Shown here in pieces: positions 38,309 to 62,450 of a DNA stretch of 64,000 nt; position 1 is the first letter of the stretch; each line of letters begins with the position of its first letter. The stretch comes from an uncultured Pelagibacteraceae bacterium (GTDB taxonomy: Bacteria; Pseudomonadota; Alphaproteobacteria; Pelagibacterales; AG-422-B15): positions 4,319 to 68,318 of the forward strand of contig CACPJE010000001.1 in NCBI GenBank assembly GCA_902634045.1. Direction: 5' to 3'. Below the pieces are notes generated by a model. That model was given only the letters and a program-made list of their open reading frames with translations. It did no database searches and was not told where the DNA came from. The position numbers were made by a program, and so were the translations under genes.

Positions 38309-39628
38309 TTAGCAATCAATCGCATTATTTCGAGACCATTCACTTTTTTGACCTTCAGGTTGTTTATCGTATTCTTTAAGTTCCCTATTTTTGAGTTTAA
38401 TATATTTTGAGACAACACTGGATCCAAAGGCATTCTTGGCTACTTTACTTTCTTTGAAAAGTTTTAGAGCTTTATCTAGGGTTTTAGGGAGTTTTTTAAC
38501 TCTTTTTAGCTTATGGCCTTGAGTGTACATATTGATATCCAATCTTTTTCCAGGAGATCTCTTATTATTTATTCCATCCAATCCAAGACCAAGCATTCCT
38601 GCTTGAAGTAGATAAGGATTTGCCGAACCATCAGCGTGTCTTACTTCAAATCTTCCTGCATCAGGAATTCTAACCATATGAGTACGATTGTTTCCTGTGT
38701 ATGTAACAGTACTCGGAGACCATGTTGCGCCAGAGAGAGTATTTGATGCATCAATTCGACCAAAACTATTTAGTGAAGGATTAAACCAAGCAGAAAAACA
38801 ATCTGCTGACTTCATAATCCCTCCAATAAAAGAATAACCTAATTTAGATAATCCAAGTTCTCCATTCTCATCTAAAAATAAATTTTTCTTTTTTTTCTGA
38901 TCCCAAATTGAAACATGAACATGGCAACCATTTCCTGTTAGGTCTGGAAAAGGTTTTGGCATGAAAGTTGCTCGCAGACCATGTTTTTCAGCAATTGATT
39001 TAACCATGAATTTAAAGAAGACGTGTCGATCGGCGGTAGTCAGGCAATCAGCATAATTCCAATTCATTTCAAATTGACCATTTGCATCTTCATGATCATT
39101 TTGATATGGCTTCCATCCTAACTTTAACATTGAGTCACATATTTCTTTAATCACGTCATATCTGCGCATTAAAGTTGATTGGTCATAGCATGGTTTCGCA
39201 GCTGTATCGCGTTTATCATCAACTTCAGTTCCATCCTCACTTAATAAGAAAAACTCACATTCAACACCAGTTTGCATGACCATATTTTTTTCATTCAGTT
39301 TCTCTATCTGTCGCTTAAGAACTACTCTTGGACATTGTTCAACAATCTTGCCATCCATTACTAGATCACTTGCTAGCCAACCTACTTCTGGTTGCCAAGG
39401 TAATTGAATAAGGCTTTTTGGATCAGGCATTGCAAGCATATCTGAGTCAGCAGGTGACATATCTAAGTATGTTGCGAAACCGGCAAAACCAGCTCCATTT
39501 TTCTGCATCTCTGCTATTGCTTGAGTTGGAACAAGCTTTGCTCTTAAAACTCCAAATAAGTCTACAAAACTAATTAAAAAATATTTAATTTTTTTTTGTG
39601 ATGCGACTTTTGATAAATTGATACTCAT
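38309..39628 (-). CDS. Glutamine synthetase-like enzyme (type III/GlnT-like); candidate gamma-glutamylmethylamide or gamma-glutamyl-polyamine synthetase
   Basis: 439 aa with a GS catalytic-domain motif (GNGCHVHVSIW) and a GS beta-grasp N-terminus. The context is a methylated-amine island. Confidence 0.85.
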   Translation of the reverse strand: MSINLSKVASQKKIKYFLISFVDLFGVLRAKLVPTQAIAEMQKNGAGFAGFATYLDMSPADSDMLAMPDPKSLIQLPWQPEVGWLASDLVMDGKIVEQCPRVVLKRQIEKLNEKNMVMQTGVECEFFLLSEDGTEVDDKRDTAAKPCYDQSTLMRRYDVIKEICDSMLKLGWKPYQNDHEDANGQFEMNWNYADCLTTADRHVFFKFMVKSIAEKHGLRATFMPKPFPDLTGNGCHVHVSIWDQKKKKNLFLDENGELGLSKLGYSFIGGIMKSADCFSAWFNPSLNSFGRIDASNTLSGATWSPSTVTYTGNNRTHMVRIPDAGRFEVRHADGSANPYLLQAGMLGLGLDGINNKRSPGKRLDINMYTQGHKLKRVKKLPKTLDKALKLFKESKVAKNAFGSSVVSKYIKLKNRELKEYDKQPEGQKSEWSRNNAIDC

Positions 39629-39681
39629 AGTAAAATAAATTATGCTTCCTCAATTTAAAAAAAACAATATATAAATTATCT

Positions 39682-40704
39682 ATGGCTAAAATTCGCAAAT
39701 CTACACCATATCAAGATGGCTTTATAATGCCTGGACGCTTTGAAAGACATAGAGGTTCATTAATTTCATGGCCGACAAAAGGCGAAAAAGAACCAGAACT
39801 ATTCAGAGATGAGATAGTTGAAGTAGTAAAAAAAATGGCTAAATACGAAGAAACATTTTTAGTTGCAGACCATAGTGATGTAGAGGAAGCAAAACATCGT
39901 TGCGGTATTTCGGCAAAAATTATTGCTGCAGATACTGAGTTTGCTTGGATAAGAGATAATGGACCCATGTTTGTAAAAAACACTAAAGGCGAAATCGCTG
40001 CAGTTAAATTTCAATTTAATGGATGGGGAGATAAGTATCCAACTTATGAAAGGGTAGGGAGTGTTCCAAATACTATTGCAGAATATTTTAATGTTCCTTT
40101 ATATGAAGCACCTTTTATTCTTGAGGGTGGAGCTATTTGTGTTGATGGAGAAGGTACATTAATTGCAACGGAGCAAACGTTGTTAAATCAGAATCGCAAT
40201 CCTTCTATGAGCAAAGATGATATAGAGAAAGGATTAAAAGACTATTTAGGAATTGAAAAAGTTATTTGGTTATACAAAGGTTTTTATGAAGATACTGAAA
40301 CTGATGGTCACGTGGACAATGTGATTGAATTTATTACTCCAGGAAAAGTTATTGTGCAGACTTGCTCAGACAATGAAAATCCTAATTTTGATATTCTTAA
40401 AGAAAATTTATCTCGCTTGAAATCAGCAACAGATGCAAGGGGTAGAAAATTGGAAATAGTTGAGTTTGATTATCTTCCTTATACTCGTTCAATTGATGGT
40501 GTTAAGTATCCTACTCCTTATCCAAACTATTATGTTATGAATGGTGCAATAATAGTTCCACAAGTAGGTTGGAAAGGCGAGCTTCAAGCGGTCACAGAGT
40601 TGCAAAGAATATTTCCTAAATTAGATGTTGTAGAGGCTCCTAGTACTTATCAAGCTGTTGGTGGCGGTGGATTAGGCTGTATGACACAACAAATCCCAGA
40701 ATAA
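39682..40704 (+). CDS. aguA: Agmatine deiminase-family (PAD_porph) enzyme
   Basis: 340 aa with WIRDNGP, FNGWG, EGGAICVDGEGT, TDGHVDN and the C-terminal catalytic-Cys motif GGGGLGCMTQQ. Confidence 0.82.
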   Translation: MAKIRKSTPYQDGFIMPGRFERHRGSLISWPTKGEKEPELFRDEIVEVVKKMAKYEETFLVADHSDVEEAKHRCGISAKIIAADTEFAWIRDNGPMFVKNTKGEIAAVKFQFNGWGDKYPTYERVGSVPNTIAEYFNVPLYEAPFILEGGAICVDGEGTLIATEQTLLNQNRNPSMSKDDIEKGLKDYLGIEKVIWLYKGFYEDTETDGHVDNVIEFITPGKVIVQTCSDNENPNFDILKENLSRLKSATDARGRKLEIVEFDYLPYTRSIDGVKYPTPYPNYYVMNGAIIVPQVGWKGELQAVTELQRIFPKLDVVEAPSTYQAVGGGGLGCMTQQIPE

Positions 40705-40727
40705 TTAGATTTATCAAGGCACTTATT

Positions 40728-41510
40728 ATGTACAAGTATTTATTGTGGATTTTAAAAATAGGAACCTTAATTAATATATATTTCCTATTACAAACAATAA
40801 TTTCACCAATTTCAAATGTAGATTCCTTCCTTCTTATTCCTGCACAAATTTTATTTTTGGTTTCCGCTTATAGGTGTATGTTTCCTGTAAACTACTCTTC
40901 ACACGCTGTTTTACACAATAATGTATTTTCATCAGTATTTATAACAAGGTTTCTTGTAACTTTTGTTGAAATTTCATACATCTTTATGTTTAGTCATGTC
41001 ATTAGAATAATTAATAATCATGAAATTTTAATTGTAGATATTTTTAGTTGGTTAATGGTTATACAAGTTAGTATTTCTCAAATTTTTGTTTGGTGTGCAA
41101 TATTAACAAAGAATGAAAATTTATATTTTTACGAGGAGATAGGATGGTTCAATATTTTTTTATTAAATTTCGTATGCAGTGTAATTATTTTATTAAGCTT
41201 TATTGATTTTAATAATCTTGAAATTTTACTTTATTTGAACTTACTTTTTGGAATAGGTTACTTGCCGTGGCAAATATTTCATCTTAAATCAATTAAAACT
41301 AGAATAAATAAGCTAAAAAATGATAGTTCAGGAAATTATGTAAGAACAACACTACTTGTAGGTTTTAAAAGTTCTCTTAAAAGAAGAGTTGTTAGTCATA
41401 ATCCTGAAGATTGGGGAGGAATAATTGGATTTACTTGGATGTTAAATTATTTCGTTACACTTATACCGGTATGGGTTTATTTTATTCTTTACACTTTTTC
41501 AGTAAATTAG
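40728..41510 (+). CDS. Polytopic membrane protein, unknown function
   Basis: 260 aa with about 6-7 hydrophobic helices and no motif I recognise. Markedly more AT-rich than its neighbours. Confidence 0.6.
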   Translation: MYKYLLWILKIGTLINIYFLLQTIISPISNVDSFLLIPAQILFLVSAYRCMFPVNYSSHAVLHNNVFSSVFITRFLVTFVEISYIFMFSHVIRIINNHEILIVDIFSWLMVIQVSISQIFVWCAILTKNENLYFYEEIGWFNIFLLNFVCSVIILLSFIDFNNLEILLYLNLLFGIGYLPWQIFHLKSIKTRINKLKNDSSGNYVRTTLLVGFKSSLKRRVVSHNPEDWGGIIGFTWMLNYFVTLIPVWVYFILYTFSVN

Positions 41511-41512
41511 TT

Positions 41513-42100
41513 TTATTCTCCTGAATAACCATATTCAAGAGCCGCATCAGTAATTGCGTGGTGAAAGGACTCACCGAAACTTCTCAAGGCCATTAGATTA
41601 TATGTTAAAGGACTGTCATCTATCATATCAACTGAAATTGTAATTCCATGATATACTGAATTCACGCAGTTATCTTTCTTAAAGTCATTAAAGTTAAAAG
41701 GACATCCTTTTTTAAGGACGTTTAAAGCATCCTCACCTTTTATTTGAATTATTGCCCTTGAGTGTGAGATATCTGTTACTGCGAAGTCCTCATTATTAAA
41801 GGTATTTTCTATAATAGGAGAAATATTATTATCATTTGAAAAGATAATCCATGAACGCGGAGCGAACCATTGTATTCTTGTTTGCCCAGCAACTGATACT
41901 TCTGCTGCATTAGAAGGTAAATTAATTGATCCAAGTTGGATATTACTAGTTACAACAGATGACTTTTTATATTGAACAACTTGATAAATATTTACATTAG
42001 TAATTTCTCTGATTTCTAACAGATTACCTTCATTTTTTTCTTGATAATCGCCAAACAGACCTTTGTTATGAGCGTTTTGAAGAGGAGAAATTCTACTCAT
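41513..42100 (-). CDS. soxG: Sarcosine oxidase-type gamma subunit
   Basis: 195 aa. ATGA overlap with the soxA stop. Size and operon position match SoxG. Confidence 0.75.
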   Translation of the reverse strand: MSRISPLQNAHNKGLFGDYQEKNEGNLLEIREITNVNIYQVVQYKKSSVVTSNIQLGSINLPSNAAEVSVAGQTRIQWFAPRSWIIFSNDNNISPIIENTFNNEDFAVTDISHSRAIIQIKGEDALNVLKKGCPFNFNDFKKDNCVNSVYHGITISVDMIDDSPLTYNLMALRSFGESFHHAITDAALEYGYSGE

Positions 42101-45093
42101 GACCTTACCCTTTCTCCATCGGGATCCACATAGTGCTGACTAACAACCTCAACAGGAATACTCATATTTTTTACAGGAGATACTGCAAATAATTTTTCTC
42201 CTTTTCTATTTTTACCATTTTTTATAATTGCTAATGAAAAAGGATTATTGTGCTCAACACTCCAGCAAGAAGCAGATACATGACCTAATTTTGGAATAGG
42301 AAATTCTGCATTTGGATTTTCTACAATATACGATCCTTCAGGGATTGAAGTTTTTTTATCAACTGGAACAATTCCGACAATTCTTTCTCTATTTTCATCA
42401 TTAAAAGCTACTCTATTTAAAGATCTTTTTCCGATGAAATCTTTTTTCTTACTTAGCATTCCATCAAGTCCCAAATCACTTGCAATTAATCTTCCATCGA
42501 TTTCTGAACCTGCTACATGCCCCATCTCAATTCGCAGCGTAGATAATGCTTCTGTCCCATATGGTTGAATGCCTAATCCTTCCCCAGCTTCAATAATTTT
42601 ATCCCACATAAATTCTCCAAAGTCTGACATTACATTGACTTCGTATGCAAGTTCTCCAGAAAAAGAAATTCTAAATATTCGAGCAGTTGTATCAAAGAAT
42701 TTAAATTCTCTATAACCCATAAATGGAAGACCTTCGTTAGATAGATCTTCATTTGGAAATAATTTACTTAAAAGCTTTCTTGAGTTTGGACCAGCTACTG
42801 CTGCTCCTGCCCATTGTTCTGTTGTAGAAAAAACATTAACTTCAAGTTCAGGCCATACTATTTGTAGATAGTATTCTAAGTGAGAGAGTACATTAGCTGC
42901 TTGGGCTGTTGTAGTTGTCATGTGAAAATGATTTTCATTAATTCGAGTTGTTGTTCCATCATCAAATACCATCCCATCTTCACGTAACATTACTCCGTAT
43001 CGGGCTTTACCTACTGGGAGTTTTAGCCAGGCATTTGTGTAAACTCTGTTTAAAAATTCTGCTGAATCTGGACCTTTAATATCGATTTTACCTAATGACG
43101 TTACATCACAGATACCAACATTTTTTCTTACGTTTGAAGCCTCTCTTTTTGCCGCTTCTTGTAACGTTTCATTGCCTTGTTTGTAATAACGTGGTCTCAA
43201 CCATAACCCTGCATCTACAAACACCGCATTGTTTCTTTCATGCCATTCGTGCATTGGAGATTTTCTAGTTGCTTTATAATATTTACTTACTTCACGACCA
43301 ATAATTGTTCCAATAGTCACAGATGTGTATGGTGGTCGAAAAGTAGTGTGTCCAACTTCAGGGACGATTTTCTTTTCAATATTTGATACGAGTTGTAATC
43401 CATTTAAATTGCTTGTTTTACCCTGATCTGTTGCCATACCAAGAGTTGTGTACCGCTTAACGTGTTCAATTGATCTAAATCCTTCTCTGACAGCAAGTTC
43501 AATATCTGATACTGCTACATCATTCTGAAAGTCGACAAATCTTTTATAATGTTTTCCTTCAGGTAAAGGCATGCACCAAAACTTATCATGATTACCTAAG
43601 TTTTTTTCATCAGATATAGGAGCATCAGTTTTAATATTTTTATTGGTAATTTTATTAGAGCTTTTGAAGCCTTGTTCGAATCCATCGTTTAATGACTCCA
43701 TTAGAGTGAAAGACCCATTAGCAGCTCCAATAACTACTTCCTGTTGTCGAGATTGATTTGGAAGGAAAGTATCTGAATCTGAATCAAACTTTAATTTATT
43801 CCCTGACTGTGAAGCAAGATGGACTGTAGGAGTCCAATTTCCTGAAACACATATACAATCGCAATCAATTTTTTGAAGACTGGTGAATGAATTTTTATTT
43901 TTATTTAATTTTCCAACTGTCGCTGATTTAACTTTGAGATGTCCAGTTGTATTTGCTATTCCGTGTTCAAACAATATATCTATACCCATCTTTTGAGCTT
44001 CACCTACAATTTGATTTTCTGAAGAGGGTCTGGTGTCTAAGATAGTAGATTGGATGCCATTCTTTTTAAATTCAATAGCAGCTTCATATGCACTATCATT
44101 ATTTGTAAAAAAGATAGGTTTTTTGCCCACTGCAACTCCATAAACTTTTAAATATTCTTTTGCAGCTGAGGCCAGTAGTATTCCAGGCCTGTCGTTATTA
44201 GAGAAGACAAGTGGACGTTCTATTGAACCAGTTGAAATAATTACTTCTTTAGCCCGTATGTACCAAAGTTTTTCTCTTGGAGTAAAGTTTTTAGGGTCTT
44301 GAAGATGATCTCTTTTTCTTTCAAACATCACCAACATATTATGATCATAATATCCAAAAACTTGTGACCTACTTTTTGTAATAACATTTGGCATCGATTT
44401 TAATTCAGCAATAACATCGTCAACCCATTCCTCCCCTTTTTTATTTCCAATTGTAACTTCATCAGTCAATAGACTTCCACCAAATCGAGGCTTATCCTCT
44501 GCAAGTATTACTCTTGCGCCATTTTTTGCTGCCGCCAGTGTGCTTGAAAGTCCTGATGGACCTGAGCCAACAACAAGAACATCACAGTGTTCATATTGAT
44601 GCTCATATCTGTCTGGGTCCGGATCTAAAGATGCCACTCCAAATCCTGCTGCTTTTCTAATGAAAGGTTCATAGATTCTATACCAAAAACTTTTTGGCCA
44701 CATAAAAGTTTTGTAATAAAAACCCGCAGGAAAAAATCTATTCAATAAGTTATTTATTTCGCCAATATCAAGTTTCACGGACGGCCAACAATTTTGACTT
44801 TTAAGCTCAAGACCTTCAACCAATTCATATTCTGTAAGATTAACATTTGGTTCAGAATAACCTTCTTTGATTAATTGAACTTTAGCACTTGGATCATCTA
44901 CTCCAGCACCAAAAATTCCTCTAGGTCGATGATACTTAAAACTTCTAGCAATTAAGTGAACTCCGTTAGCTATAAGAGCTGAAGCTAGAGTATCTCCTTT
45001 GTATCCAAAATATTTTTTGCCATTAAATATAAAAGAAATTTTATGATTTTTATCAATAAGCCCAATATTTTTTAATCTATAATTTTGAGTCAT
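42097..45093 (-). CDS. soxA: Sarcosine oxidase-type alpha subunit
   Basis: 998 aa. Dinucleotide-binding site VVGSGPSGLS and a C-terminal GcvT-like folate-binding domain. Confidence 0.9.
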   Translation of the reverse strand: MTQNYRLKNIGLIDKNHKISFIFNGKKYFGYKGDTLASALIANGVHLIARSFKYHRPRGIFGAGVDDPSAKVQLIKEGYSEPNVNLTEYELVEGLELKSQNCWPSVKLDIGEINNLLNRFFPAGFYYKTFMWPKSFWYRIYEPFIRKAAGFGVASLDPDPDRYEHQYEHCDVLVVGSGPSGLSSTLAAAKNGARVILAEDKPRFGGSLLTDEVTIGNKKGEEWVDDVIAELKSMPNVITKSRSQVFGYYDHNMLVMFERKRDHLQDPKNFTPREKLWYIRAKEVIISTGSIERPLVFSNNDRPGILLASAAKEYLKVYGVAVGKKPIFFTNNDSAYEAAIEFKKNGIQSTILDTRPSSENQIVGEAQKMGIDILFEHGIANTTGHLKVKSATVGKLNKNKNSFTSLQKIDCDCICVSGNWTPTVHLASQSGNKLKFDSDSDTFLPNQSRQQEVVIGAANGSFTLMESLNDGFEQGFKSSNKITNKNIKTDAPISDEKNLGNHDKFWCMPLPEGKHYKRFVDFQNDVAVSDIELAVREGFRSIEHVKRYTTLGMATDQGKTSNLNGLQLVSNIEKKIVPEVGHTTFRPPYTSVTIGTIIGREVSKYYKATRKSPMHEWHERNNAVFVDAGLWLRPRYYKQGNETLQEAAKREASNVRKNVGICDVTSLGKIDIKGPDSAEFLNRVYTNAWLKLPVGKARYGVMLREDGMVFDDGTTTRINENHFHMTTTTAQAANVLSHLEYYLQIVWPELEVNVFSTTEQWAGAAVAGPNSRKLLSKLFPNEDLSNEGLPFMGYREFKFFDTTARIFRISFSGELAYEVNVMSDFGEFMWDKIIEAGEGLGIQPYGTEALSTLRIEMGHVAGSEIDGRLIASDLGLDGMLSKKKDFIGKRSLNRVAFNDENRERIVGIVPVDKKTSIPEGSYIVENPNAEFPIPKLGHVSASCWSVEHNNPFSLAIIKNGKNRKGEKLFAVSPVKNMSIPVEVVSQHYVDPDGERVRS

Positions 45094-45368
45094 GAGTGTT
45101 CTTCTTTGTTACTGCTGAGCTCATAAGTTTCTATAATTTCATGAGTTGCAGTATTTCTCTTAGCTTTAAACCATTGTCTACAGCCTGAAATATGTTGCCA
45201 TAGCTCTAAATGGTCTCCTCGTGGATTCTTTCTGTAATAAACAAATGTATCCCATTCTTCATCAGAAACTTCAGTATTTAGCTTTGGTCGTTTTATGGTT
45301 GCGTCTCCTCCATAGGCAAATTCATTTTGTGATCGTTTACCGCAATAAGGACATTTAATTTCAAGCAT
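45090..45368 (-). CDS. soxD: Sarcosine oxidase-type delta subunit
   Basis: 92 aa with an N-terminal CPYCG zinc-ribbon-like motif, located between soxB and soxA. Confidence 0.88.
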   Translation of the reverse strand: MLEIKCPYCGKRSQNEFAYGGDATIKRPKLNTEVSDEEWDTFVYYRKNPRGDHLELWQHISGCRQWFKAKRNTATHEIIETYELSSNKEEHS

Positions 45369-45370
45369 AA

Positions 45371-46627
45371 TTAGCTAATCCAAGTTTTTGTTCCTATACC
45401 CTTTTCATCTATGAGGTGTCCAGTATTAAACCTATCAAGCCTAAAAGGAGCATTTAATTCATGAACTTCATCTTTAGCAATTGTATGAGCGAAGGTTAGA
45501 CCTGAAACCGGAGTGGCTTTAAATCCACCGTAACACCAACCACAGTTTAAATATAATCCATCTATATGAGTTTTATCTATAATTGGAGAGGTATCCATAG
45601 ACATATCCATTATTCCACCCCAGGTTCTTAGCATCTTAAGACGACTTAAATTTGGAAAGAGTGCAACTCCTTCAGTTAATACATGCTGAATAGTCGGAAG
45701 ATTTCCTCTCTGAGCGTAACTGTTATAACCATCAAGATCTCCACCCATCACCATCTCACCTTTATCAGATTGACTGCAATAGAAATGACCTGCACCAAAT
45801 GTTACAACTTGATCCAGAAGAGGTTTAATAGGTTCTGATACGCAAGCCTGTAAGACATGTGCTTCAATAGGTAAAGTCATATTAAGTTTTTCAGCAAGTA
45901 ATGATGTACTTCCAGCAACACATAGACCAATTTTTTTTGCTTTTATATTTCCTCGAGAAGTTTGAACTCCTTTTATCTTTCCGTTACTAACATCAAATCC
46001 AGTAACCTCACAATTTTGAATAATATCTATACCATGATCGTCAGCTCCTCTTGCGTATCCCCAAGCTACAGCATCGTGTCTTGCGGTTCCACCTGATGAC
46101 TGAAATAATCCTCCAAAGATTGGAAAACGACAGTTTGAGGAAAAATCTGCAAATGGAATCATTTTTTTAACATCTTCTCTATTTAATAATTTTGCATCGA
46201 TACCATTTAGCCGCATAGAATTTCCTCTTCTTGAGTAGGTATTCATTTGTGCATCAGAATGCGCAAGATTTAAAATTCCTCGAGGAGAGTACATCACATT
46301 ATAATTTAACTCCTGACTTAGATCCCTCCACATCTGCATTCCTTTTTCGTAGAAAAGATTATTTGCGTTATGCATATAATTTGAACGAAGGATTGTTGTA
46401 TTTCTTCCAACGTTTCCTCCACCAATCCATCCCTTTTCAAGAATTGCAACATTTCGGATATTAAAATTTTTGGCAAGATAATATGCGGTAGCTAAACCAT
46501 GTCCACCACCACCAATAATAATTACTTCATATTCTTTTTTTGGCTCAGGATCTCTCCATGCAACATCCCAATTTTGATGATAAGAAAAAGCATTATTGAT
46601 CAGACTAAAGACTGAGTATTTTTTCAT
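45371..46627 (-). CDS. soxB: Sarcosine oxidase-type beta subunit
   Basis: 418 aa with FAD site IIIGGGGHGLATAYYLA. First gene of the BDAG order. Confidence 0.9.
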   Translation of the reverse strand: MKKYSVFSLINNAFSYHQNWDVAWRDPEPKKEYEVIIIGGGGHGLATAYYLAKNFNIRNVAILEKGWIGGGNVGRNTTILRSNYMHNANNLFYEKGMQMWRDLSQELNYNVMYSPRGILNLAHSDAQMNTYSRRGNSMRLNGIDAKLLNREDVKKMIPFADFSSNCRFPIFGGLFQSSGGTARHDAVAWGYARGADDHGIDIIQNCEVTGFDVSNGKIKGVQTSRGNIKAKKIGLCVAGSTSLLAEKLNMTLPIEAHVLQACVSEPIKPLLDQVVTFGAGHFYCSQSDKGEMVMGGDLDGYNSYAQRGNLPTIQHVLTEGVALFPNLSRLKMLRTWGGIMDMSMDTSPIIDKTHIDGLYLNCGWCYGGFKATPVSGLTFAHTIAKDEVHELNAPFRLDRFNTGHLIDEKGIGTKTWIS

Positions 46628-46743: not shown

Positions 46744-47091
46744 TTAGGTGCTTATGTTTTTTAAAGTAGCCAGATATTCTGTAAATTCTTTAATGAATAG
46801 CTCACTCGGTTTGATATGTTTCCTACGTTTATCAGCGTCTGTTTTTTCCAGGTAAAAAAATCCTCTTTCACAAGCTTCTGTGATGATCATTGAAGATTTA
46901 GGTCTTGATGTATTAAATAGCTTTGTTTTCAATTCTTCAACTGACAGTGTTGTTTGATTGTAGTAAGCAGACATTACTAATAGCATCATATGATAATGTG
47001 ATGGAGTCTTACGAAAGAAAAAATTACTTGAACGATGAGATTTTCTCATCTGGTCTTCCCAAAATTGAAGTAGTAGATTTACTGAATCCAT
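46744..47091 (-). CDS. Small putative winged-helix (MarR-like) DNA-binding protein
   Basis: 115 aa. The segment LSVEELKTKL...SSMIITEACERGFFYLEKTDADKRRKHIKPS looks like an HTH plus a basic wing. Lies between the orphan flavoprotein and soxB on the same strand. Confidence 0.45.
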   Translation of the reverse strand: MDSVNLLLQFWEDQMRKSHRSSNFFFRKTPSHYHMMLLVMSAYYNQTTLSVEELKTKLFNTSRPKSSMIITEACERGFFYLEKTDADKRRKHIKPSELFIKEFTEYLATLKNIST

Positions 47092-55207: not shown

Positions 55208-55247
55208 AAAATCTCCCCTAGTTGTTTAACTAGGGGAGATTTTTTTT
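55208..55247 (+). terminator. Intrinsic terminator/attenuator after tmoX
   Basis: 16-bp perfect stem (AAAATCTCCCCTAGTT / AACTAGGGGAGATTTT) with a 4-nt loop (GTTT), running into an 8-T tract. Located 28 nt after the tmoX stop and 15 nt before the next ATG. Confidence 0.8.
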
Positions 55248-55262: not shown

Positions 55263-55712
55263 ATGAAAAGATTATTTTTATTTATTATTTTAACTATTTT
55301 TGTTTGTAATTCAGCTTTTGCACGTAAGACAGGATGTGAAGGTGATTGTGAAAATGGGATAGGAACATGGACCTATACAGATAAAACAGTCTATGTAGGT
55401 GAGTGGCGTGGTAGTTTAAAGCACGGGGAAGGTGTCGAAACTTGGCCAAATGGATATATATACACTGGTGAATTTGTGGATAGTAAATGGCAAGGACGAG
55501 GGATTTTAATTTTTCCAGATGGTGCTAAATATGAAGGTGATTGGTTTGATGACAATATGAATGGTCAAGGAACTTTTACTTGGGCAAATGGAGATATATA
55601 TGTCGGAGAATTTATTGACAGTAAAAGACATGGACAGGGCACTAAAACTAACGCTGATGGATCGGTAATGAAGGGTATTTGGGAAGAAGGAGGACTGGTT
55701 GAGTCTAACTAG
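55263..55712 (+). CDS. Secreted MORN-repeat protein
   Basis: 149 aa with a signal peptide (MKRLFLFIILTIFVCNSAFA). Four full MORN repeats (YVGEW..GEG, YTGEF..GRG, YEGDW..GQG, YVGEF..GQG) plus a partial fifth. Confidence 0.85.
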   Translation: MKRLFLFIILTIFVCNSAFARKTGCEGDCENGIGTWTYTDKTVYVGEWRGSLKHGEGVETWPNGYIYTGEFVDSKWQGRGILIFPDGAKYEGDWFDDNMNGQGTFTWANGDIYVGEFIDSKRHGQGTKTNADGSVMKGIWEEGGLVESN

Positions 55713-55721: not shown

Positions 55722-56267
55722 ATGGCTAAAGATAACATTTTAAGAAAGTATAAAGAAACACCAGAAGGCCTTAGAGGATTGTTAGAACTAGGCGGGTTAA
55801 TGCTCTTAATAATTTCTATATTTTTTATTTTTTACATAGTTTTTCCTGGAAAGGAAAAAATACCTGAGGAGGATATTGTGCAAGAGAGTAACCAGTCTGA
55901 AGAAAATTATAAAGAAGTAATTAATTCACTTCCAAGTGGCCAAGTAAATTTCTACTCAAGTAATGAAGGTTATGAATTAACACTTGCTGAATATGAAGCA
56001 GTTTGCAAAAATACTAAAATAGTAACTCAGCGATCTATAATGGGTGCACATATTACAGATATTAGAGCACAAAAGTTGTATAAAGATAATGGAAACAATC
56101 TTGATAGTTCTTCAGTAGTTTGGGATAGTTTAGCTAATGTATGTATTGTTGAGTATGTTTTAGAAGCTGTGCATGGCACAACTGATACAATTACAGTTAT
56201 AGGTGAAGCAAAGGGGTTTTTGAATACTGGTATAGATACTAGAGTATATTTTATAAAAAATTTTTAA
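55722..56267 (+). CDS. Membrane-anchored protein, unknown function
   Basis: 181 aa. Short charged N-terminus, one TM (LGGLMLLIISIFFIFYIVF), and a C-terminal domain of about 130 aa with no motif I recognise. Confidence 0.6.
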   Translation: MAKDNILRKYKETPEGLRGLLELGGLMLLIISIFFIFYIVFPGKEKIPEEDIVQESNQSEENYKEVINSLPSGQVNFYSSNEGYELTLAEYEAVCKNTKIVTQRSIMGAHITDIRAQKLYKDNGNNLDSSSVVWDSLANVCIVEYVLEAVHGTTDTITVIGEAKGFLNTGIDTRVYFIKNF

Positions 56268-56312: not shown

Positions 56313-57353
56313 ATGTCTTCTTCTCAATCAATAATTAAGTGTGAATCTGTCTATAAGATTTTTGGAGCCAATGCTGAAAAGATGCTCAAAGATGTTAATG
56401 GTAATGTCGATGCTAAAACATTTCAGGAAGCAGGCTGTATTGTTGGAGTAAATAATGCATCATTTGAAGTTTCAAAAGGAGAAATGCTTGTTGTAATGGG
56501 TCTATCAGGATCAGGAAAATCAACATTGCTTCGCTGCATTTCAAGACTTACAGACGCAACATCTGGTAAAATTTATATTGATGGTCAGGACTTATTAAAA
56601 CTAAAAAATAAGGAGCTAATAGAATTAAGAAGAAATAAAATGGGCATGGTTTTTCAAAGCTTTGCCTTATTGCCACATAAAACTGTGCTTGAAAATATTG
56701 CATTTCCTCTACAAATCAAAGGTATTAAGACTCAGGAGAGTATCTCTAGAGCAATGGATATGCTTAAGCTTGTAGGTCTTGATGGTAGGGAAAATTATTT
56801 CCCAAGAGAATTGTCTGGAGGACAGCAACAAAGAGTAGGTATTGCTAGGTCTCTAGCAGTAGAGCCAGATATATGGTTTTTAGATGAGCCTTTTTCAGCT
56901 TTAGATCCATTAATTCGAAAAGAAATGCAGGATGAATTTTTAAGACTACAAAGCTCACTAAAAAAAACTATTTTGTTTGTTACTCATGATTTTGATGAAG
57001 CATTGAAACTTGCAGATCGAATTGCAATTATGAAAGATGGAATTATTGAACAATTAGACTCACCTGCAAATATTGTTTTAAATCCAGCAACAGAATATGT
57101 ACGTAAGTTTACGCAAGAAGTTCCTAGAGAAAAAGTTTTGAAAATTGAATCTGTAATGGATCCAGTTGATGATGATCAGAATCTTAGTGATTTTAAAGTT
57201 TTAAAAGATGCAGTTCTTGAAACGGTTGCAGAAAAAATTTTAGAGCAAGATAAATCTGTGCCAGTTGTTGACTCTAATCAAAATGTTGTTGGCATTATCA
57301 AGCCTTCAAAAGTAATTCATGTTGTTTTTGGAAATACTGACATTAACTCGTAA
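56313..57353 (+). CDS. tmoV: ABC transporter ATP-binding protein, ProV-like (TmoV-type)
   Basis: 346 aa. Walker A GLSGSGKST, signature LSGGQQQRV, Walker B IWFLDEPFSALD, and a C-terminal regulatory (CBS-like) extension. Confidence 0.9.
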   Translation: MSSSQSIIKCESVYKIFGANAEKMLKDVNGNVDAKTFQEAGCIVGVNNASFEVSKGEMLVVMGLSGSGKSTLLRCISRLTDATSGKIYIDGQDLLKLKNKELIELRRNKMGMVFQSFALLPHKTVLENIAFPLQIKGIKTQESISRAMDMLKLVGLDGRENYFPRELSGGQQQRVGIARSLAVEPDIWFLDEPFSALDPLIRKEMQDEFLRLQSSLKKTILFVTHDFDEALKLADRIAIMKDGIIEQLDSPANIVLNPATEYVRKFTQEVPREKVLKIESVMDPVDDDQNLSDFKVLKDAVLETVAEKILEQDKSVPVVDSNQNVVGIIKPSKVIHVVFGNTDINS

Positions 57354-57356
57354 TCT

Positions 57357-59510
57357 ATGGATTTTGTAAATAAACATTCAAAACTAATTCAATGGCTTTT
57401 GTTGTTACTTACTTTTTTTGGATTAATTTTTGCAATAGATATACCTGAAGGATATAAATTCATAAGAGCTGAAGCTGAGCATGTAGTAGTTGAGGGTCAG
57501 TCTACTTACAGCTTGTTTGGAATATCTGTAAGTTATACCTATTTTAATTTTCTTTGGAGATTACCACCTTGGCTAGGATGGCTTCCTATTTGGATAAATG
57601 ATGCAGTATATTTTTTATTGAATGAATGGTGGCTAATAGATCTTTGGGATTCTGATTTTGGTGATTACAAAACACGACCATTTATGATGCATGTGACTAG
57701 GTTCATTTCATCAATTTTACTTTTTTTAATTGAATTTGTTCGTGAAATATTCATTGGTGGAGTTAAAACAGTAGTAGCATTTACTAGCTGGGACTGGATT
57801 GATACTAACCCTTGGGCAGAATTTCTTGGAATCCCTTGGACCATTGTCACTGTTGGTGCAATTTTAATGGGATATAACTTGGCTGGAAGAGGCTTAGCAG
57901 TTTTTGCTGGCGCTACCATGATTTATATTTCTGTGTTTGGTCAATGGGAACCGTCGATGCAAACACTATCATTTATTCTCGTAGCGGCACCAGTTTCTTT
58001 TATTCTTGGTTTAAGCCTGGGAGTATTAGCTTACAGAAGCAGAAGAATTGAAAAGATATTATCTCCTATTCTTATGGTTATGCAAGTAACGCCCCAATAT
58101 GCTTACCTTGTCCCTGCAATGGTTCTTTTTGGAATTGGAGATCAAGCTGGAGCGATTGTAACAATAGTTGTTGCAACTCCACCCATGATCTTATTAACGG
58201 TACTAGGCCTGAGAGCAGTATCTCCTGAAGTTATTGAAGCTGGCAAAATGAGTGGATGTAGTGATTTGCAACTTACCCTTAAAGTGTTAATCCCAACTGC
58301 AAAAAGAGATATTTTAATCGGCGTTAATCAGGTCATCATGGTGTGTTTATCGATGGCCGTTATTGCATCATTTATAGGAGCTAAAGGATTAGGCTGGAAT
58401 TTATTATTGGCTTTAAATCGTCTTAACATTGGATTAGCTCTAGAGGCCGGAGTTTGTATCACTCTAATTGCTGTTCTTTTAGATAGAATGTCTTTAGCAT
58501 GGGCAAATAAGCAAAAAGATTATTTTACTAACCTTAATTTTTTTCAGCGTTATAAATATACTTTAATTTTTATTGGAACAGCAATAATAGGATCGATACT
58601 TGCTTATTTAGGTTCTTTCTATTTCAAAGAGGGATTTAATTATTTATTTGAAGTTCCTCATAACAAAGGATTATCTAACGCAGATTCCTGGAATAATGGT
58701 GTTGATTGGATATGGGATACATTTTTTCATCCACTAAAAATATTTAATACATGGTTAATCGTTGATGTGCTCCAGCCTATGAGAGCTGCTTTTCTCCGTA
58801 TGCCAGTTGTTGCAACATTTGTTTTAGTTATGGGGGCGGGATATATCATTGGTGGAATTAGATCAGCTCTTATTGTAGGAGGACTAACTCTGTTTATTGC
58901 TTTAACAGAATGGTGGGATAGAGCGCTAGTTACTGCATACATGGCAACTTGCGGGGTTATAATTTCAACTATAATTGGAGTGACAGTAGGTACTTTTTGT
59001 TCTCAAAATAATTATGCTTCAAAATTCATTTTAGGTGTTTGTGACACCTTCCAAACCTTCCCTTCATTTGTTTATTTAATTCCTGTTATGATGTTATTTG
59101 GAGTAACAGATACAGCGGTATTAATTGCTGTGGTTGTTTATGCGACTATTCCTGCAACACGCTACACAGTTGAAGGCCTTCGAAGTATTCCTCCAAGTTT
59201 ACACGATGCTGCAGCCATGTCTGGGGTAAATACTTTTCAAAGATTAATTAAAATAGATTTTCCTCTAGCTTTTCCTCATATTATGCTTGGAGTTAATCAA
59301 ACTGTTGTCTTTGCTTTATTCATGGTGATTATTGGTGCATTCATAGGAACTGAAGATTTAGGACAATATATTTTAAAGGCTTTATCCGATAGGCAAGGAG
59401 CTGGTAAAGGTTTAATACTTGGAGTTTGTGTTGCTTTTATTGGTCTGATTGTTGATAATTTAATCAGAACCTATGCTGAAAGAAGAAAGAAAGAATTAGG
59501 TTTCAGTTAA
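57357..59510 (+). CDS. tmoW: ABC transporter permease, tandem-fused ProW-like (TmoW-type)
   Basis: 717 aa. Two permease modules, each with its own EAA-type loop (EAGKMSGCSDLQLTLKVLIP and HDAAAMSGVNTFQRLIKIDFP). Confidence 0.88.
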   Translation: MDFVNKHSKLIQWLLLLLTFFGLIFAIDIPEGYKFIRAEAEHVVVEGQSTYSLFGISVSYTYFNFLWRLPPWLGWLPIWINDAVYFLLNEWWLIDLWDSDFGDYKTRPFMMHVTRFISSILLFLIEFVREIFIGGVKTVVAFTSWDWIDTNPWAEFLGIPWTIVTVGAILMGYNLAGRGLAVFAGATMIYISVFGQWEPSMQTLSFILVAAPVSFILGLSLGVLAYRSRRIEKILSPILMVMQVTPQYAYLVPAMVLFGIGDQAGAIVTIVVATPPMILLTVLGLRAVSPEVIEAGKMSGCSDLQLTLKVLIPTAKRDILIGVNQVIMVCLSMAVIASFIGAKGLGWNLLLALNRLNIGLALEAGVCITLIAVLLDRMSLAWANKQKDYFTNLNFFQRYKYTLIFIGTAIIGSILAYLGSFYFKEGFNYLFEVPHNKGLSNADSWNNGVDWIWDTFFHPLKIFNTWLIVDVLQPMRAAFLRMPVVATFVLVMGAGYIIGGIRSALIVGGLTLFIALTEWWDRALVTAYMATCGVIISTIIGVTVGTFCSQNNYASKFILGVCDTFQTFPSFVYLIPVMMLFGVTDTAVLIAVVVYATIPATRYTVEGLRSIPPSLHDAAAMSGVNTFQRLIKIDFPLAFPHIMLGVNQTVVFALFMVIIGAFIGTEDLGQYILKALSDRQGAGKGLILGVCVAFIGLIVDNLIRTYAERRKKELGFS

Positions 59511-60581
59511 TTACTCAATACTTGTAATTTCAATTTCATTTGAATTAACTGGAAGAATAATCATTGTTCCATCCTTAGCTAAAGTCCAATCAGGAAAAAT
59601 CTTACTCAAACCTCTTGTGAATATTTGTTCAGCTATATATCCATCAGGAGCTGGAGATAGGTGATTTAAAATTAAATGATCAACTTCTGCTTTTTTTGCA
59701 ACTCTTGCTGCTTCTTTAGGGGTAGAGTGATAATTTTTTATATCTTCCATTATCTTTGCGTTGAATTGGCCACTATTTTCTAACTCTTCTCTTGCCATTT
59801 CCACCAGCATATTGGACTGTGCTTCATGAATAAGAACGTCAGCATCCTTAGCATTTTTGATCACGTTGTTATTCATTGTTGTATCCCCGCTAATAACAAT
59901 AGATCGATCTTTATAATCAAATCGAAATCCAAATGCAGGTTCTACAGGTGAGTGATTAACTGTGAAAGCAATTATTTTTAAATCATTCTCATCAAAGACT
60001 TTAGATTCTTGAACGATCGTAATGGGGTTGTAGCCTGCAACTTTTAATGGAGCTAAATTATCACCGTGATGCATATTTCTGTATAAATAATCAAGTTTAT
60101 GACTCATTTCAAATCCTTGAGTTATTAACTCAATACCCCTTGGACCATAAACATCTAACTTTTTTGTTCTATCTACCCCTATCCAAGTAACTAGATTTAA
60201 GTCAGCTAAATCTGAGATATGATCAGAGTGCATATGAGTTATCAATACAGCTTTAATTTTATTAAATGGTATATTCCAGTTTCTAAGATTTGCTACGCTT
60301 CCATCGCCTACATCAACGATGTAGATATGCTCTCCAGCAATAATCATGGTACATGTTTCTGCTCGGTCTGGGGGAGCAGTAATTGGAGACCTTGTCCCAC
60401 ATGTAACTGCACTTAATGCATCATAGTCAGGTATTTTAGTATTTCCTAATATTGCTCTTTGAACTTGAGCCTTTATAGTCAACTTGGCTGCTAGATCTTG
60501 TACAGCAGTAAATTGAATAGCAATTAATGTGAGAATGCTTATAGCAATTATTAGTAAAAGAAAGTGTTTCAGTATCCTCAT
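59511..60581 (-). CDS. Membrane-anchored MBL-fold metallo-hydrolase (RNase Z/ElaC-like)
   Basis: 356 aa with an N-terminal TM/signal anchor and the metal motif HMHSDH. Confidence 0.8.
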   Translation of the reverse strand: MRILKHFLLLIIAISILTLIAIQFTAVQDLAAKLTIKAQVQRAILGNTKIPDYDALSAVTCGTRSPITAPPDRAETCTMIIAGEHIYIVDVGDGSVANLRNWNIPFNKIKAVLITHMHSDHISDLADLNLVTWIGVDRTKKLDVYGPRGIELITQGFEMSHKLDYLYRNMHHGDNLAPLKVAGYNPITIVQESKVFDENDLKIIAFTVNHSPVEPAFGFRFDYKDRSIVISGDTTMNNNVIKNAKDADVLIHEAQSNMLVEMAREELENSGQFNAKIMEDIKNYHSTPKEAARVAKKAEVDHLILNHLSPAPDGYIAEQIFTRGLSKIFPDWTLAKDGTMIILPVNSNEIEITSIE

Positions 60582-60834: not shown

Positions 60835-60849
60835 AAAGTCTAATTTTTA

Positions 60850-61065
60850 TTACCAGTTGGTAATATTACTTTTATGGTCATTTGGACCAGGAGCTCTATT
60901 GCGAACTTCCTCATGTTCTTCAGTCTCGCTGATGCCAGTAATGACATGCCAGCCAAGCCAAATCACAATTGCAAGAACTAACCACCAAACTTCTGTTCCA
61001 ACATACGGGTAAACCTGACCTTGGCCAGATTCCATAACTTCTACCCAGTTTGTTACTGTAGCCAT
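60850..61065 (-). CDS. Small Trp-rich single-TM membrane protein co-transcribed with amt
   Basis: 71 aa. Perfect SD (AGGAGG at 61071-61076) 5 nt before the ATG and immediately after the amt stop. One TM (VWWLVLAIVIWLGWHVITGI). Much more GC-rich than the genome background. Confidence 0.7.
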   Translation of the reverse strand: MATVTNWVEVMESGQGQVYPYVGTEVWWLVLAIVIWLGWHVITGISETEEHEEVRNRAPGPNDHKSNITNW

Positions 61066-61076
61066 AGTTTCCTCCT

Positions 61077-62450
61077 TTATTGTTCAGCAGAAGCAACAGT
61101 TTCTTCGTCTTTTTTTGCTGCCTCCATTGCTAAGTAGTCTTGACCAGCTATCTCAACTTCTCTAGGAATACGTAATTGTCCTACACTATTAAGTATAAGT
61201 GCAATTACATAACCTGGTAAGAAACCAAGAACACCGAACATAATAACTGCGCCAGCTAACATTCCTAAAGGATTGATTGCTGCATATCCTTCGTAAGTTG
61301 AAGAAGGATATCCCCATAAAACGAAGCCACAAATTAAAAGTCCGACAACACCGGCATAACCATGAACCGCGACTGCGCCTACAGCGTCATCAATTTTGAA
61401 TCGACGCTCTACCCAGTAATGTAGTTTGTACATAATTACTACACCGATCATAGCAATGACCATTGATTGTAAAGGATGGTACAAGTCGTTTCCTGCAGAC
61501 GCACAGATTATTCCTGCAAGTCCACTTGAATACGTCCAGAAAGGATCTCCCTTTGCTACTACATAACCAGCTAGCAAACCACCAGCGAGTGACATTAAGA
61601 AGTTCATTGTAACTCCACTTAGAGTTGTTGGAGCAGCATAGATATTAGTTGCAGTGAAGTATGTTACTCCTGCACCAGAATCAGCTCCAGCATCAAAAAT
61701 TGGAATATTACAAGCTGCATAGAAACCCCAGAACCCTGTATAAATTAAAAACAGTCCTAGAGTAACTAACCAAGGGTTTCTTGGTCCAATGTTTTGAGGT
61801 ACGCCATTTACAAATTTTCCAATTCGTGGACCCAACACAACAAGTACACCTAAAGCAAATCCACCACAAACTGCGTGAATTACACCAGAAGCATAAGCAT
61901 CATGATATCCCAAAACTTTAACCATCCATCCATCAAAGTGCCATCCCCAAGATGCATCGATTGACCAGAATACAGAACCAATTGCGATAGCTAAAACGCC
62001 AAAGGCACTAATTCGGATTCTTTCAATCACTGCTCCTGAAACGATAGAAGCGGCAGTCCAAGAGAACAGCAAGAATGCTGCCCAGAACACACCACTGATG
62101 TGATCGCCCATGTTAATTGCCATTGCAGGACCAGTAGGGTTTCCTAATTCATTAGCTCCCCATCCGTCTGCAACTAAGTTCATTCCAGACTCACCACTAA
62201 TTATTGATGTGCCTAGACCTGGACCATTAATGAAGGCCCAATAAATCCACCAACCAAAGAAAAACCAAGTAATTGTTACCAATGGTATTAGCATTGTGTT
62301 CTTCATAAGAGTGTGTTGATGGTTTTTGTAACGAGAGACTCCAACTTCATACATACAGAACCCGACATGAATTAAGAACATGAGGACTACTGTGATCCAG
62401 TAGTAAAATTCTGTAAATATGGTTACCAGAGCCGATAACTCATTATCCAT
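61077..62450 (-). CDS. amt: Ammonium (or methylammonium) transporter, Amt family
   Basis: 457 aa, 11-12 TM, with Amt signatures (AASIVSGAVIERI, DDAVGAVAVHGYAGVVG). Confidence 0.93.
   Translation of the reverse strand: MDNELSALVTIFTEFYYWITVVLMFLIHVGFCMYEVGVSRYKNHQHTLMKNTMLIPLVTITWFFFGWWIYWAFINGPGLGTSIISGESGMNLVADGWGANELGNPTGPAMAINMGDHISGVFWAAFLLFSWTAASIVSGAVIERIRISAFGVLAIAIGSVFWSIDASWGWHFDGWMVKVLGYHDAYASGVIHAVCGGFALGVLVVLGPRIGKFVNGVPQNIGPRNPWLVTLGLFLIYTGFWGFYAACNIPIFDAGADSGAGVTYFTATNIYAAPTTLSGVTMNFLMSLAGGLLAGYVVAKGDPFWTYSSGLAGIICASAGNDLYHPLQSMVIAMIGVVIMYKLHYWVERRFKIDDAVGAVAVHGYAGVVGLLICGFVLWGYPSSTYEGYAAINPLGMLAGAVIMFGVLGFLPGYVIALILNSVGQLRIPREVEIAGQDYLAMEAAKKDEETVASAEQ

Follow-up and report, generated by a model that had tools for sequence, protein, structure and literature searches.

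A 24-kb block within a 64-kb stretch of DNA (the window; GC content of ~33%) on contig CACPJE010000001.1 of an uncultured Pelagibacteraceae bacterium is very probably a methylated-amine utilisation island of a SAR11-related bacterium, rearranged and partly reduced, and this reading best explains the block as a whole. The core of the island is already-described biology; the arrangement, which comes from a non-Ia SAR11 lineage, is new, and the value lies in the comparative leads rather than in the cluster itself. The foremost of these leads is DAO447, an FAD-dependent amine oxidase or dehydrogenase of a narrow family, orthologous to SAR11_1304 of ‘Candidatus Pelagibacter ubique’ HTCC1062 (47155..48498, minus strand). 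DAO447 is the only uncharacterised enzyme tied to tdm, the gene for trimethylamine N-oxide (TMAO) demethylase, in all lineages examined. Our best guess from the sequence is that DAO447 removes a methyl group at the dimethylamine (DMA) level, with either free DMA or DMA bound to glutamate as its substrate.

Related loci were collected by scanning one genome per species with the window Tdm protein, and every window protein was run by tblastn against the resulting 80 loci, which comprise 52 loci from Pelagibacter sensu stricto, 20 from HIMB59-like Alphaproteobacteria and 8 from close relatives; the distribution counts below follow this split. The core genes of the island are linked in the 80 loci, all from different species-level genomes, and in part also in other phyla. 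Tdm is 91% identical in the best relative, the Pelagibacteraceae single amplified genome AG-313-D09 (locus L001), ~80% identical in loci L002–L007 and L024, ~65% in the HIMB59-like loci and ~54% in Pelagibacter sensu stricto; across the proteins compared between the window and the latter group, identity ranges from 54% (Tdm) up to 84% (TmoV). Families were assigned by Pfam and NCBIfam scans of open reading frames (ORFs) of at least 90 amino acids and by comparison with PDB chains, and folds by means of AlphaFold2 (AF2) models and Foldseek.

Tmm, Tdm, GmaS, SoxA, SoxB, SoxD and TmoV all score above the curated NCBIfam cut-offs. Tmm (52635..53969, minus strand) is predicted to convert trimethylamine (TMA), with NADPH and O2, to TMAO. 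Its translation contains the stretches GSGPCG, GSSYSA and FPGRILHSHDF, which correspond, respectively, to the FAD motif GxGxxG, the NADPH motif GxSxxA and the flavin monooxygenase motif FxGxxxHxxxF/Y, and scores 751 bits with the NCBIfam equivalog ‘trimethylamine monooxygenase’ (NF058570, cut-off 675); among the solved chains, the scores are 846 bits for 7d4k and 554–624 bits for 5ipy, 2vq7 and 8b2d. Tdm (48673..51030, plus strand; 785 amino acids) would turn TMAO into DMA, with the one-carbon (C1) unit handed to tetrahydrofolate (THF). It consists of DUF1989 (PF09347, 137 bits), GCV_T (PF01571, 226 bits) and GCV_T_C (PF08669, 66 bits) domains, marginally exceeds the cut-off of the NF053776 equivalog (1107.5 versus 1100 bits) and aligns along its full length (residues 28–783, 878 bits) with the solved TMAO demethylase 9q59. 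GmaS, gamma-glutamylmethylamide synthetase (38309..39628, minus strand), is expected to join monomethylamine (MMA) to glutamate with the use of ATP, giving gamma-glutamylmethylamide (GMA). It scores 624 bits with TIGR03105 (cut-off 470), 564 bits with 7cql (deposited as ‘Type III glutamate--ammonia ligase’; we take it to be a GmaS structure) and 321 bits with 9qur, ‘glutamate--methylamine ligase’, well above the ~207 bits with glutamine synthetases, and is 70–73% identical to the Pelagibacter gmaS copy located 3' of amt.

TMAO uptake is assigned to TmoX, TmoV and TmoW; as with the three enzymes, the assignment is based on strong homology to proteins that have been characterised or solved. TmoX, the periplasmic binding protein (54230..55180, plus strand; OpuAC, 128 bits), has a sole PDB match at E ≤ 1e-10, namely 4xz6 (286 bits), presumably the structure of TmoX from Ruegeria pomeroyi, and is 81–84% identical to the Pelagibacter sensu stricto orthologs that occupy the same position beside tdm. 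TmoV (56313..57353, plus strand) is a ProV-family ABC ATPase (TIGR01186, 353 bits, cut-off 327), and TmoW (57357..59510, plus strand; 717 amino acids) is a fused double ProW-type permease, in which BPD_transp_1 and the choline/ProW permease models match two stretches, with 13 hydrophobic segments. The HTCC1062 TmoX binds TMAO with a Kd of 0.5 µM (PMC8918994). The first-pass annotation had listed the flavin monooxygenase, the 785-residue fusion of DUF1989-like and GcvT-like halves, the three-part transporter (54230–59510, plus strand), a soxBDAG-type oxidase, a glutamine synthetase (GS)-like enzyme and an Amt channel, and had matched the core to the known Tmm, Tdm and TmoXVW. The ORF map, Pfam and NCBIfam locate all of these where they had been placed, and the curated hidden Markov models and solved structures uphold the match, with the monooxygenase falling within the Tmm equivalog and the fusion showing the DUF1989 plus GcvT architecture.

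Two steps of the pathway are missing from the window. The DMA monooxygenase DmmDABC consists of a DUF3445-type DmmA, a ferredoxin-reductase-type DmmB and GcvT-type DmmC and DmmD, and Pfam detects no domains of these types in the window ORFs of this size range other than the GCV_T domains of Tdm and SoxA. N-methylglutamate synthase, MgsABC, would be apparent as a triad of class-II glutamine amidotransferase (GATase), GXGXG and Glu_synthase domains, which Pfam does not find in the same ORFs; no mgs genes were identified in the window either by blastp with the Mgs-like proteins of set 1 (see below) or by tblastn with canonical MgsA, MgsB and MgsC at E ≤ 1, and the empty tblastn search implies that there are no mgs pseudogene remnants. 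According to Pfam, the remaining ORFs are housekeeping, fatty-acid and sugar genes only. The earlier remark that dmmDABC- and mgsABC-type genes are missing is, thus, correct for the window. Since dmmDABC is absent from all SAR11, clade-wide (PMC5520151), the lack of the dmm genes is not an effect of the window edge, and because HTCC1062 grows when TMAO is its only source of nitrogen, for which the authors suggested an unknown DmmDABC isoenzyme (PMC8918994), it is a real puzzle. A survey of the literature of 2021–2026 found no paper identifying a SAR11 DMA enzyme. For the conversion of DMA to MMA, with no DmmDABC in the window, DAO447 would be the best candidate; for the conversion of GMA to N-methylglutamate, neither MgsABC nor set 1 is present in the window, which leaves no candidate there.

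DAO447 corresponds to SAR11_1304 by position, with 63% identity, and in 75 of the 80 related loci its gene and tdm are no more than 3.5 kb apart. Clustering at 50% identity gives few full-length clusters, which marks the family as narrow. The Pfam DAO domain covers residues 9–227 only, and no solved chain matches the sequence of the substrate domain (residues ~232–371). The AF2 model (pLDDT 87) is closest in fold to the beta subunit of heterotetrameric sarcosine oxidase (TSOX), the beta subunit of archaeal proline dehydrogenase, monomeric sarcosine oxidase (MSOX), dimethylglycine oxidase (DMGO) and dimethylglycine dehydrogenase (DMGDH). DAO447 shares the two-domain FAD fold with TSOX (1vrq, 2gag) and MSOX (1el5), with TM-scores of 0.7–0.8, but differs in sequence, the identity to these nearest folds being 18–22%. 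SAR11_1304 is annotated as ‘monomeric sarcosine oxidase’ and has been speculated to demethylate or deaminate amines (PMC3870248, PMC5520151). The published label is unsupported because the score with the family model is far below the cut-off (TIGR01377, 46.9 versus 480 bits) and only the FAD half is matched, with MSOX chains aligning to residues 10–227 alone (E ~4e-4) at a structural identity of 19–20%; accordingly, DAO447 was rejected as an MSOX. The first-pass annotation had proposed that genes without an assigned role might carry out one or more of the steps that follow DMA; this idea is plausible mainly for DAO447, for the SAR11_1304 ortholog of which it had already appeared in print in the two papers just cited.

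Action at the DMA level is supported by the universal linkage of the DAO447 gene to tdm, by the physiological gap and by induction under nitrogen limitation, the only condition under which the SAR11_1304 protein was detected (PMC3870248). Within this reading, free DMA as the substrate is a tentative assignment, to be taken as one possibility among several. Four observations weigh against it. All the nearest fold relatives of DAO447 oxidise carboxylate-bearing N-alkyl amino acids. Two residues are invariant in the family, an Arg in the stretch GVVRNNY, which aligns with the TSOX beta stretch IIRSNY, and a Lys in NHGYKM; they presumably are the equivalents of the carboxylate-binding Arg52 and Lys348 of MSOX, and given this match, an amino-acid-type substrate is favoured. 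In two distant organisms, the DAO447 homolog is accompanied by set 1, with no tdm within 10 kb. Finally, in HTCC1062 under nitrogen limitation, the SAR11_1305 and SAR11_1308 proteins, which belong to set 1, decrease, whereas SAR11_1304 increases (PMC3870248), and this opposite response argues against a simple co-regulation of SAR11_1304 with set 1.

Set 1 includes a GS-like protein of ~490 amino acids, a class-II GATase, a GXGXG protein and a GltB-like FMN protein, and corresponds to SAR11_1305–1308. It starts 44–106 bp after the DAO447 gene in 64 SAR11 or HIMB59-like loci; its coordinates are 14150–18824 in L037, 2086–6730 in L013, 11414–16117 in L081, 3638–8290 in L086 and 16135–19661 in L024. 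All four proteins stay below the curated family cut-offs and are 29–53% identical to canonical MgsABC; judging by sequence, set 1 is an uncharacterised paralog of the gmaS-mgsABC set. The association extends far beyond SAR11: in L081 (GC 53%), a DAO447 homolog adjoins set 1, with an Amt gene nearby; in L082 (GC 69%), a homolog of the actinobacterial type lies beside the same kind of set; and in L086 (GC 71%), two tandem homologs, 35–50% identical, are located between set 1 and Amt, near a Tdm that is 54% identical to that of the window. DAO447 is, therefore, part of a conserved cross-phylum module that is made up of set 1, DAO447 and Amt and may or may not include Tdm.

Several features of these distant loci deserve mention in their own right. 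The tandem pair of L086 (8724–11299) adjoins the Amt gene, an acyl-CoA-dehydrogenase-like gene and a gene for Tdm fused to a Flavin_Reduct domain (893 amino acids), and the first of the two homologs appears to be split or frameshifted. In the distant homolog of L081 (P0128, 10001–11365), the dinucleotide-binding motif is degenerate, with GSAVIHSVPTA replacing GAGIHGLSTA, and the conserved stretch ASGASGIACG is missing; on sequence grounds, this protein may be a non-catalytic paralog.

The module suggests a different role for DAO447, namely, that of the single-subunit oxidase of a second, glutamate-mediated amine pathway, which would act together with set 1 on N-methylglutamate or a similar N-alkyl amino acid. 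We give this alternative an appreciable weight, short of an even chance. It draws on the 44–106 bp spacing of set 1 from DAO447 in the 64 loci, on the presence of set 1 beside homologs of 35–44% identity in three unrelated high- or mid-GC organisms, two of them without tdm within 10 kb, on the 29–53% identity of set 1 to canonical MgsABC, on the fold and on the two conserved residues, Arg and Lys, which match those of carboxylate-binding N-methyl amino-acid oxidases, and on the JGI label ‘methylglutamate dehydrogenase subunit A’ that some family members carry. The window and its 8 closest relatives, however, keep the DAO447 gene next to tdm without an adjacent set 1; in all 8 loci of this group, soxBDAG lies beside DAO447 where set 1 would sit, and set 1 is seen only in L024, on the 3' side of tmoW. 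Because the group retains DAO447 beside tdm with soxBDAG instead, DAO447 seems able to work without an adjacent set 1. The growth of HTCC1062 on TMAO as its only source of nitrogen, which requires that DMA be broken down (PMC8918994), and the opposite nitrogen response of SAR11_1304 and set 1 (PMC3870248) also count against the amino-acid substrate. We keep to action at the DMA level as our guess; the broader proposition, that SAR11 and other bacteria without dmm demethylate DMA by means of the DAO447 family, alone or with set 1 and the linked Amt, is a speculative one.

A third possibility is that DMA is removed without a dedicated enzyme, through N-oxygenation by Tmm followed by demethylation that is either spontaneous or catalysed by Tdm, in which case the pathway would require none of the genes without an assigned role. 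Both Tmm and Tdm are present and intact in the window, and bacterial Tmm is said, in work of Chen et al. from 2011, to oxidise DMA too. Against this route, tmm is missing within 10 kb in several close relatives (L002–L007) that do have tdm and DAO447, no result of the present analysis speaks in its favour, and it is not known to us from any organism. We consider it improbable.

Downstream of DMA, the next enzyme to be interpreted is the heterotetrameric oxidase encoded by soxG-soxA-soxD-soxB (41513..46627, minus strand), an operon probably of the MgdABCD type. Homologs of all four genes, soxB, soxD, soxA and soxG, are present, as in TSOX (1vrq, 2gag), and their family scores are above the cut-offs (TIGR01372, 1303 bits; TIGR01373, 687 bits; TIGR01374, 120 bits) except for the weak gamma subunit, SoxG (66 versus 144 bits). 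The direct continuation of such an operon into mgsABC is a hallmark of mgdABCD, the genes for N-methylglutamate dehydrogenase (Mgd), and in L087–L089 (GC 35%, contigs of ~1 Mb), a soxB ortholog that is 82% identical to that of the window runs directly into mgsABC (293, 227 and 437 amino acids). The gene order in these loci is tmoXVW, tdm, gcvT-like, tmm, soxBDAG, mgsABC, iclR, DAO447 homolog (55% identical) and set 1. From the operonic association of the 82% identical ortholog with mgsABC, an Mgd-type function, whereby an N-methyl amino acid is converted to the amino acid and 5,10-CH2-THF, is the likely one for the window operon as well. Such an enzyme would give back glutamate from N-methylglutamate, along with a second C1-THF unit.

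The main points against the Mgd assignment come from SoxB, which scores 473 bits over 391 residues with genuine TSOX beta subunits, those of Corynebacterium and Stenotrophomonas, and most relatives of which are annotated in the source databases as ‘sarcosine oxidase’. On these two grounds, the operon could encode a true heterotetrameric sarcosine oxidase of the glycine-betaine route, in which case the block would join two separate C1 pathways, in keeping with the title given to it in the first pass, and the window would contain no Mgd. The window also lacks mgsABC to supply N-methylglutamate, and L002 and L004 have genes for a Rieske oxygenase, a betaine-homocysteine methyltransferase (BHMT)-like enzyme and DMGDH nearby. 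Nonetheless, the 82% identical ortholog in L087–L089 is located immediately 5' of an mgsABC set of canonical size, gmaS is only one or two genes away from the operon in the window and in L002/L006, and Sun et al. described a pair of soxBDAG paralogs in SAR11, of which one should be an Mgd (PMC3160333). A sarcosine oxidase thus appears rather unlikely, and Mgd is preferred. Of the original naming, the soxBDAG-type oxidase stands; the mention of sarcosine in the title given to the block is uncertain, with the gene context favouring Mgd and the SoxB score pointing to TSOX.

The loci L087–L089 also represent the most complete version of the island that was found, with everything within 21 kb; an extra gene for a 389-residue GcvT-like protein follows tdm there and occupies the place of the cupin gene of the window (see below). 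In L002 (16583–22355) and L004 (12195–16722), the genes after the ABC transporter encode an oxygenase of the Rieske ring-hydroxylating type, a creatinase/M24-like protein, a protein similar to homocysteine S-methyltransferase and a DMGDH-type fusion of DAO and GcvT domains. This arrangement resembles a betaine-type module for the demethylation of quaternary amines that has been joined to the island; the L002 transporter is only ~40% identical to TmoX.

In the window, gmaS is found two genes beyond soxG, and the place where mgsABC would be expected is taken by two genes on the opposite strand, PAD340 and unk260. The genome is probably larger than 1 Mb, compared with the 64 kb analysed, so that mgsABC or set 1 may lie elsewhere; a search of public assemblies for the exact Tdm sequence of the window gave no match. 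The region after amt, examined in L029–L080 (~20.8–22.3 kb in locus coordinates), is visible in 39 species representatives of Pelagibacter sensu stricto, of which 20 show amt followed by mgsA, the HTCC1062 arrangement, and 19 show amt followed directly by gmaS. Hence gmaS without neighbouring mgsABC is common, and within SAR11 the canonical mgsABC set is variable or can be dispensed with, about half of the Pelagibacter representatives lacking it at the usual place. In the loci where gmaS directly follows amt, set 1 may substitute for mgsABC.

The second lead is a small gene, unk115 (46744..47091, minus strand), located between tdm and the DAO447 gene, on the DAO447-soxBDAG strand and divergent from tdm. 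The 115-residue product has no Pfam or NCBIfam match even at E = 10 and belongs to more than 5000 database clusters, all of 115–117 amino acids and all unnamed. The AF2 model shows the order helix-helix-helix-helix-strand-strand-helix, and in a Foldseek search of the PDB, all of the 50 best hits are MarR-family or closely related winged-helix regulators (PefR, MexR, MepR and MarR), with E-values from 1e-4 and TM-scores of 0.5–0.7; since there is no sequence-profile match, the protein is classified as MarR-like by fold only. It is encoded in 48 of the 52 Pelagibacter sensu stricto loci, and few proteins of the island are as well conserved, with 74% identity where Tdm shows 54%. In HIMB59-like loci, its place is taken by an IclR regulator and a choline-kinase-like gene. 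The model suggests that unk115 is probably a transcriptional regulator of the island, which would control two divergent units, one strand carrying DAO447-marR-soxBDAG and the opposite strand tdm-cupin-MFS. This assignment is weakened by the only moderate confidence of the model (pLDDT 76) and by the outcome of an operator search in the divergent intergenic regions, where the inverted repeats are short, AT-rich and indistinguishable from the background; a promoter scan yielded fewer sites than were obtained in shuffled sequences.

The MarR-fold protein between DAO447 and tdm is previously unrecognised. A counterpart of unk115 is present in L037 (12310–12660), between the equivalents of SAR11_1303 (tdm) and SAR11_1304. 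In the literature, SAR11_1303 (Tdm) and SAR11_1304 are described as adjacent (PMC3160333), from which we infer that the ORF is unannotated in HTCC1062.

The transporter operon includes two small genes that had not been named in the first-pass description of the island. MORN149 (55263..55712, plus strand) encodes a secreted MORN-repeat protein (four stretches, 98 bits) with a signal-like hydrophobic segment at the N-terminus, and unk181 (55722..56267, plus strand) encodes a membrane-anchored protein with a single N-terminal transmembrane segment (residues 23–41) and no Pfam or NCBIfam family match, even at E = 10. Both are located between tmoX and tmoV, in 49 (MORN149) and 48 (unk181) of the 52 Pelagibacter sensu stricto loci and, in each case, in 5 of the 8 close loci. 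Directly 3' of tmoX, a terminator scan identified a hairpin with a 16-bp stem and a T-run (55208..55243, plus strand). The intergenic sequence with this hairpin is conserved in L001, L024, L004 and L007, and the hairpin is probably an intra-operon terminator or attenuator that raises the output of the binding protein relative to that of the membrane components.

The Amt channel (61077..62450, minus strand; Ammonium_transp, 172 bits) belongs to the methylamine-cluster subtype typified by SAR11_1310: it is 75–78% identical to the Amt encoded between set 1 and gmaS/mgsABC in Pelagibacter loci and 66% identical to the one near the DAO447 homolog in L081 (GC 53%). The stop codon of amt is followed, after 11 nt, by orf71 (60850..61065, minus strand), which was missed in the first pass; it encodes a 71-residue protein with a single transmembrane segment, has a strong AGGAGG Shine-Dalgarno sequence and is matched, in tblastn searches, by homologs of 37–51% identity 3' of amt in at least 28 Pelagibacter loci. 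Amt and orf71 would carry the flux of ammonium or methylammonium. Rfam scans detected no RNA family within the island, including the surroundings of amt, where riboswitch-like elements have been reported in HTCC1062, and the 150 bp upstream of amt gave no blastn match among the related loci.

When the nine genes to which the first-pass annotation could assign no role were checked for synteny, about half proved to be syntenic with tmm/tdm in other lineages and the rest to be strain-variable. DAO447, unk115, MORN149, unk181 and cupin121 recur across SAR11 lineages, whereas PAD340, unk260 and MBL356 are absent even from L001, and MFS404 is shared with L001 alone. The small ChrR-type cupin, cupin121 (51041..51406, plus strand; Cupin_7, 58 bits), starts 10 nt after tdm and is found 3' of tdm in 10 of the 20 HIMB59-like loci and 2 of the 8 close relatives, being absent in Pelagibacter sensu stricto. 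MFS404 (51418..52632, plus strand; MFS_1, 142 bits) encodes a major facilitator superfamily (MFS) transporter of the oxalate/formate-antiporter or lactate-transporter type, for which the best NCBIfam scores, 97 bits with SfMCT and 92 bits with TIGR00890, are both far below the cut-off.

The agmatine-deiminase-like protein PAD340 (39682..40704, plus strand; PAD_porph, 305 bits), a guanidino-group hydrolase that would release NH3, scores 292 bits with TIGR03380, below the cut-off of 382, matches 2ewo, 2jer and 1vkp over its full length (197 bits) and retains the catalytic Cys in GGGGLGCMTQQIP. It is absent from all the 80 related loci, including the 91% identical L001. Given the full-length homology to agmatine deiminases, together with the catalytic Cys, a part in general nitrogen scavenging seems more likely than one in methylamine breakdown. 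The neighbouring unk260 (40728..41510, plus strand) encodes a polytopic membrane protein with at least five hydrophobic segments, which has no Pfam or NCBIfam match even at E = 10 and no homolog in the related loci. The possibility that PAD340 and unk260 replace MgsABC was rejected, given that PAD340 is an agmatine deiminase homolog and that the 91% identical relative has neither gene. MBL356 (59511..60581, minus strand), a membrane-anchored hydrolase of the metallo-beta-lactamase fold (Lactamase_B_2 and Lactamase_B), scores far below the cut-offs of the RNase Z and GntH models and is absent from the related loci.

A gene for a 2-oxoglutarate (2OG)-Fe(II) oxygenase similar to HalD and WelO5 (37444..38292, minus strand; Pfam HalD, 42 bits, and 2OG-FeII_Oxy_3) lies 16 nt downstream of gmaS, just outside the coordinates originally set for the block. 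As none of the 80 related loci contains a homolog, it does not represent a conserved pathway step and was rejected as an N-demethylase. PAD340, unk260, MBL356 and this flanking oxygenase are best explained as strain-variable nitrogen-scavenging or accessory inserts, not as pathway steps. These four genes, along with DLH, likewise strain-variable, are what could be adduced for the view that the entire clustering is a chance juxtaposition in a variable region, devoid of functional meaning. The linkage of the core in 80 loci, partly in other phyla, effectively refutes that view through the synteny counts, and we regard it as extremely improbable.

Elsewhere in the window, a tRNA gene (Rfam, 65.7 bits; 4234–4307, plus strand) overlaps the 5' end of the ORF at 4219–5199, which encodes an EamA transporter; this overlap implies that the true start of the transporter gene is further downstream.

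The closest described counterpart of the block is the HTCC1062 island SAR11_1302–1316, which includes tmoX, tdm, sox (SAR11_1304), the glnT/gltB2 set, amt, glxBCD (= mgsABC) and gmaS (PMC3160333, PMC5520151, PMC8918994). The two have in common Tmm, Tdm, GmaS and TmoXVW with the two inserted small genes, the SAR11_1304-type DAO next to tdm with the MarR-fold ORF in between, the amt subtype with orf71, and the absence of dmmDABC. They differ in gene order and strands: the window has soxBDAG beside DAO447 where Pelagibacter has set 1, lacks both set 1 and mgsABC, carries the additional cupin121, MFS404, PAD340, unk260 and MBL356, and has its tmm between tdm and tmoX. The cluster of Ruegeria pomeroyi DSS-3 contains tmm, tdm, tmoXVW, dmmDABC, gmaS-mgsABC, mgdABCD and tmaR (PMC5520151, PMC13390433). 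The pathway logic and the Tmm, Tdm, TmoXVW, GmaS and soxBDAG-type (Mgd) families are the same, but the window lacks DmmDABC and MgsABC, possesses a gene of the DAO447 family and, in place of the AraC-type TmaR, encodes the 115-residue MarR-fold protein.

Methylated amines are a major marine pool of nitrogen and C1 units as well as aerosol precursors, and in the surface ocean tmm, tdm and gmaS are carried mainly by SAR11. Through the DAO447 lead, the MarR-fold protein, the cross-phylum module and the variability of mgsABC, the question of how SAR11 disposes of DMA is narrowed by comparison, rather than answered by the window itself. If DAO447 oxidises an N-alkyl amino acid, SAR11, including this lineage, would excrete DMA, and the published ‘bottleneck’ would be real. 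If, instead, the DAO447 family demethylates DMA, there would be a flavin-dependent route for DMA, possibly mediated by glutamate and unrelated to DmmDABC, and the proposed ‘metabolic bottleneck’ in marine methylated-amine degradation would be removed.

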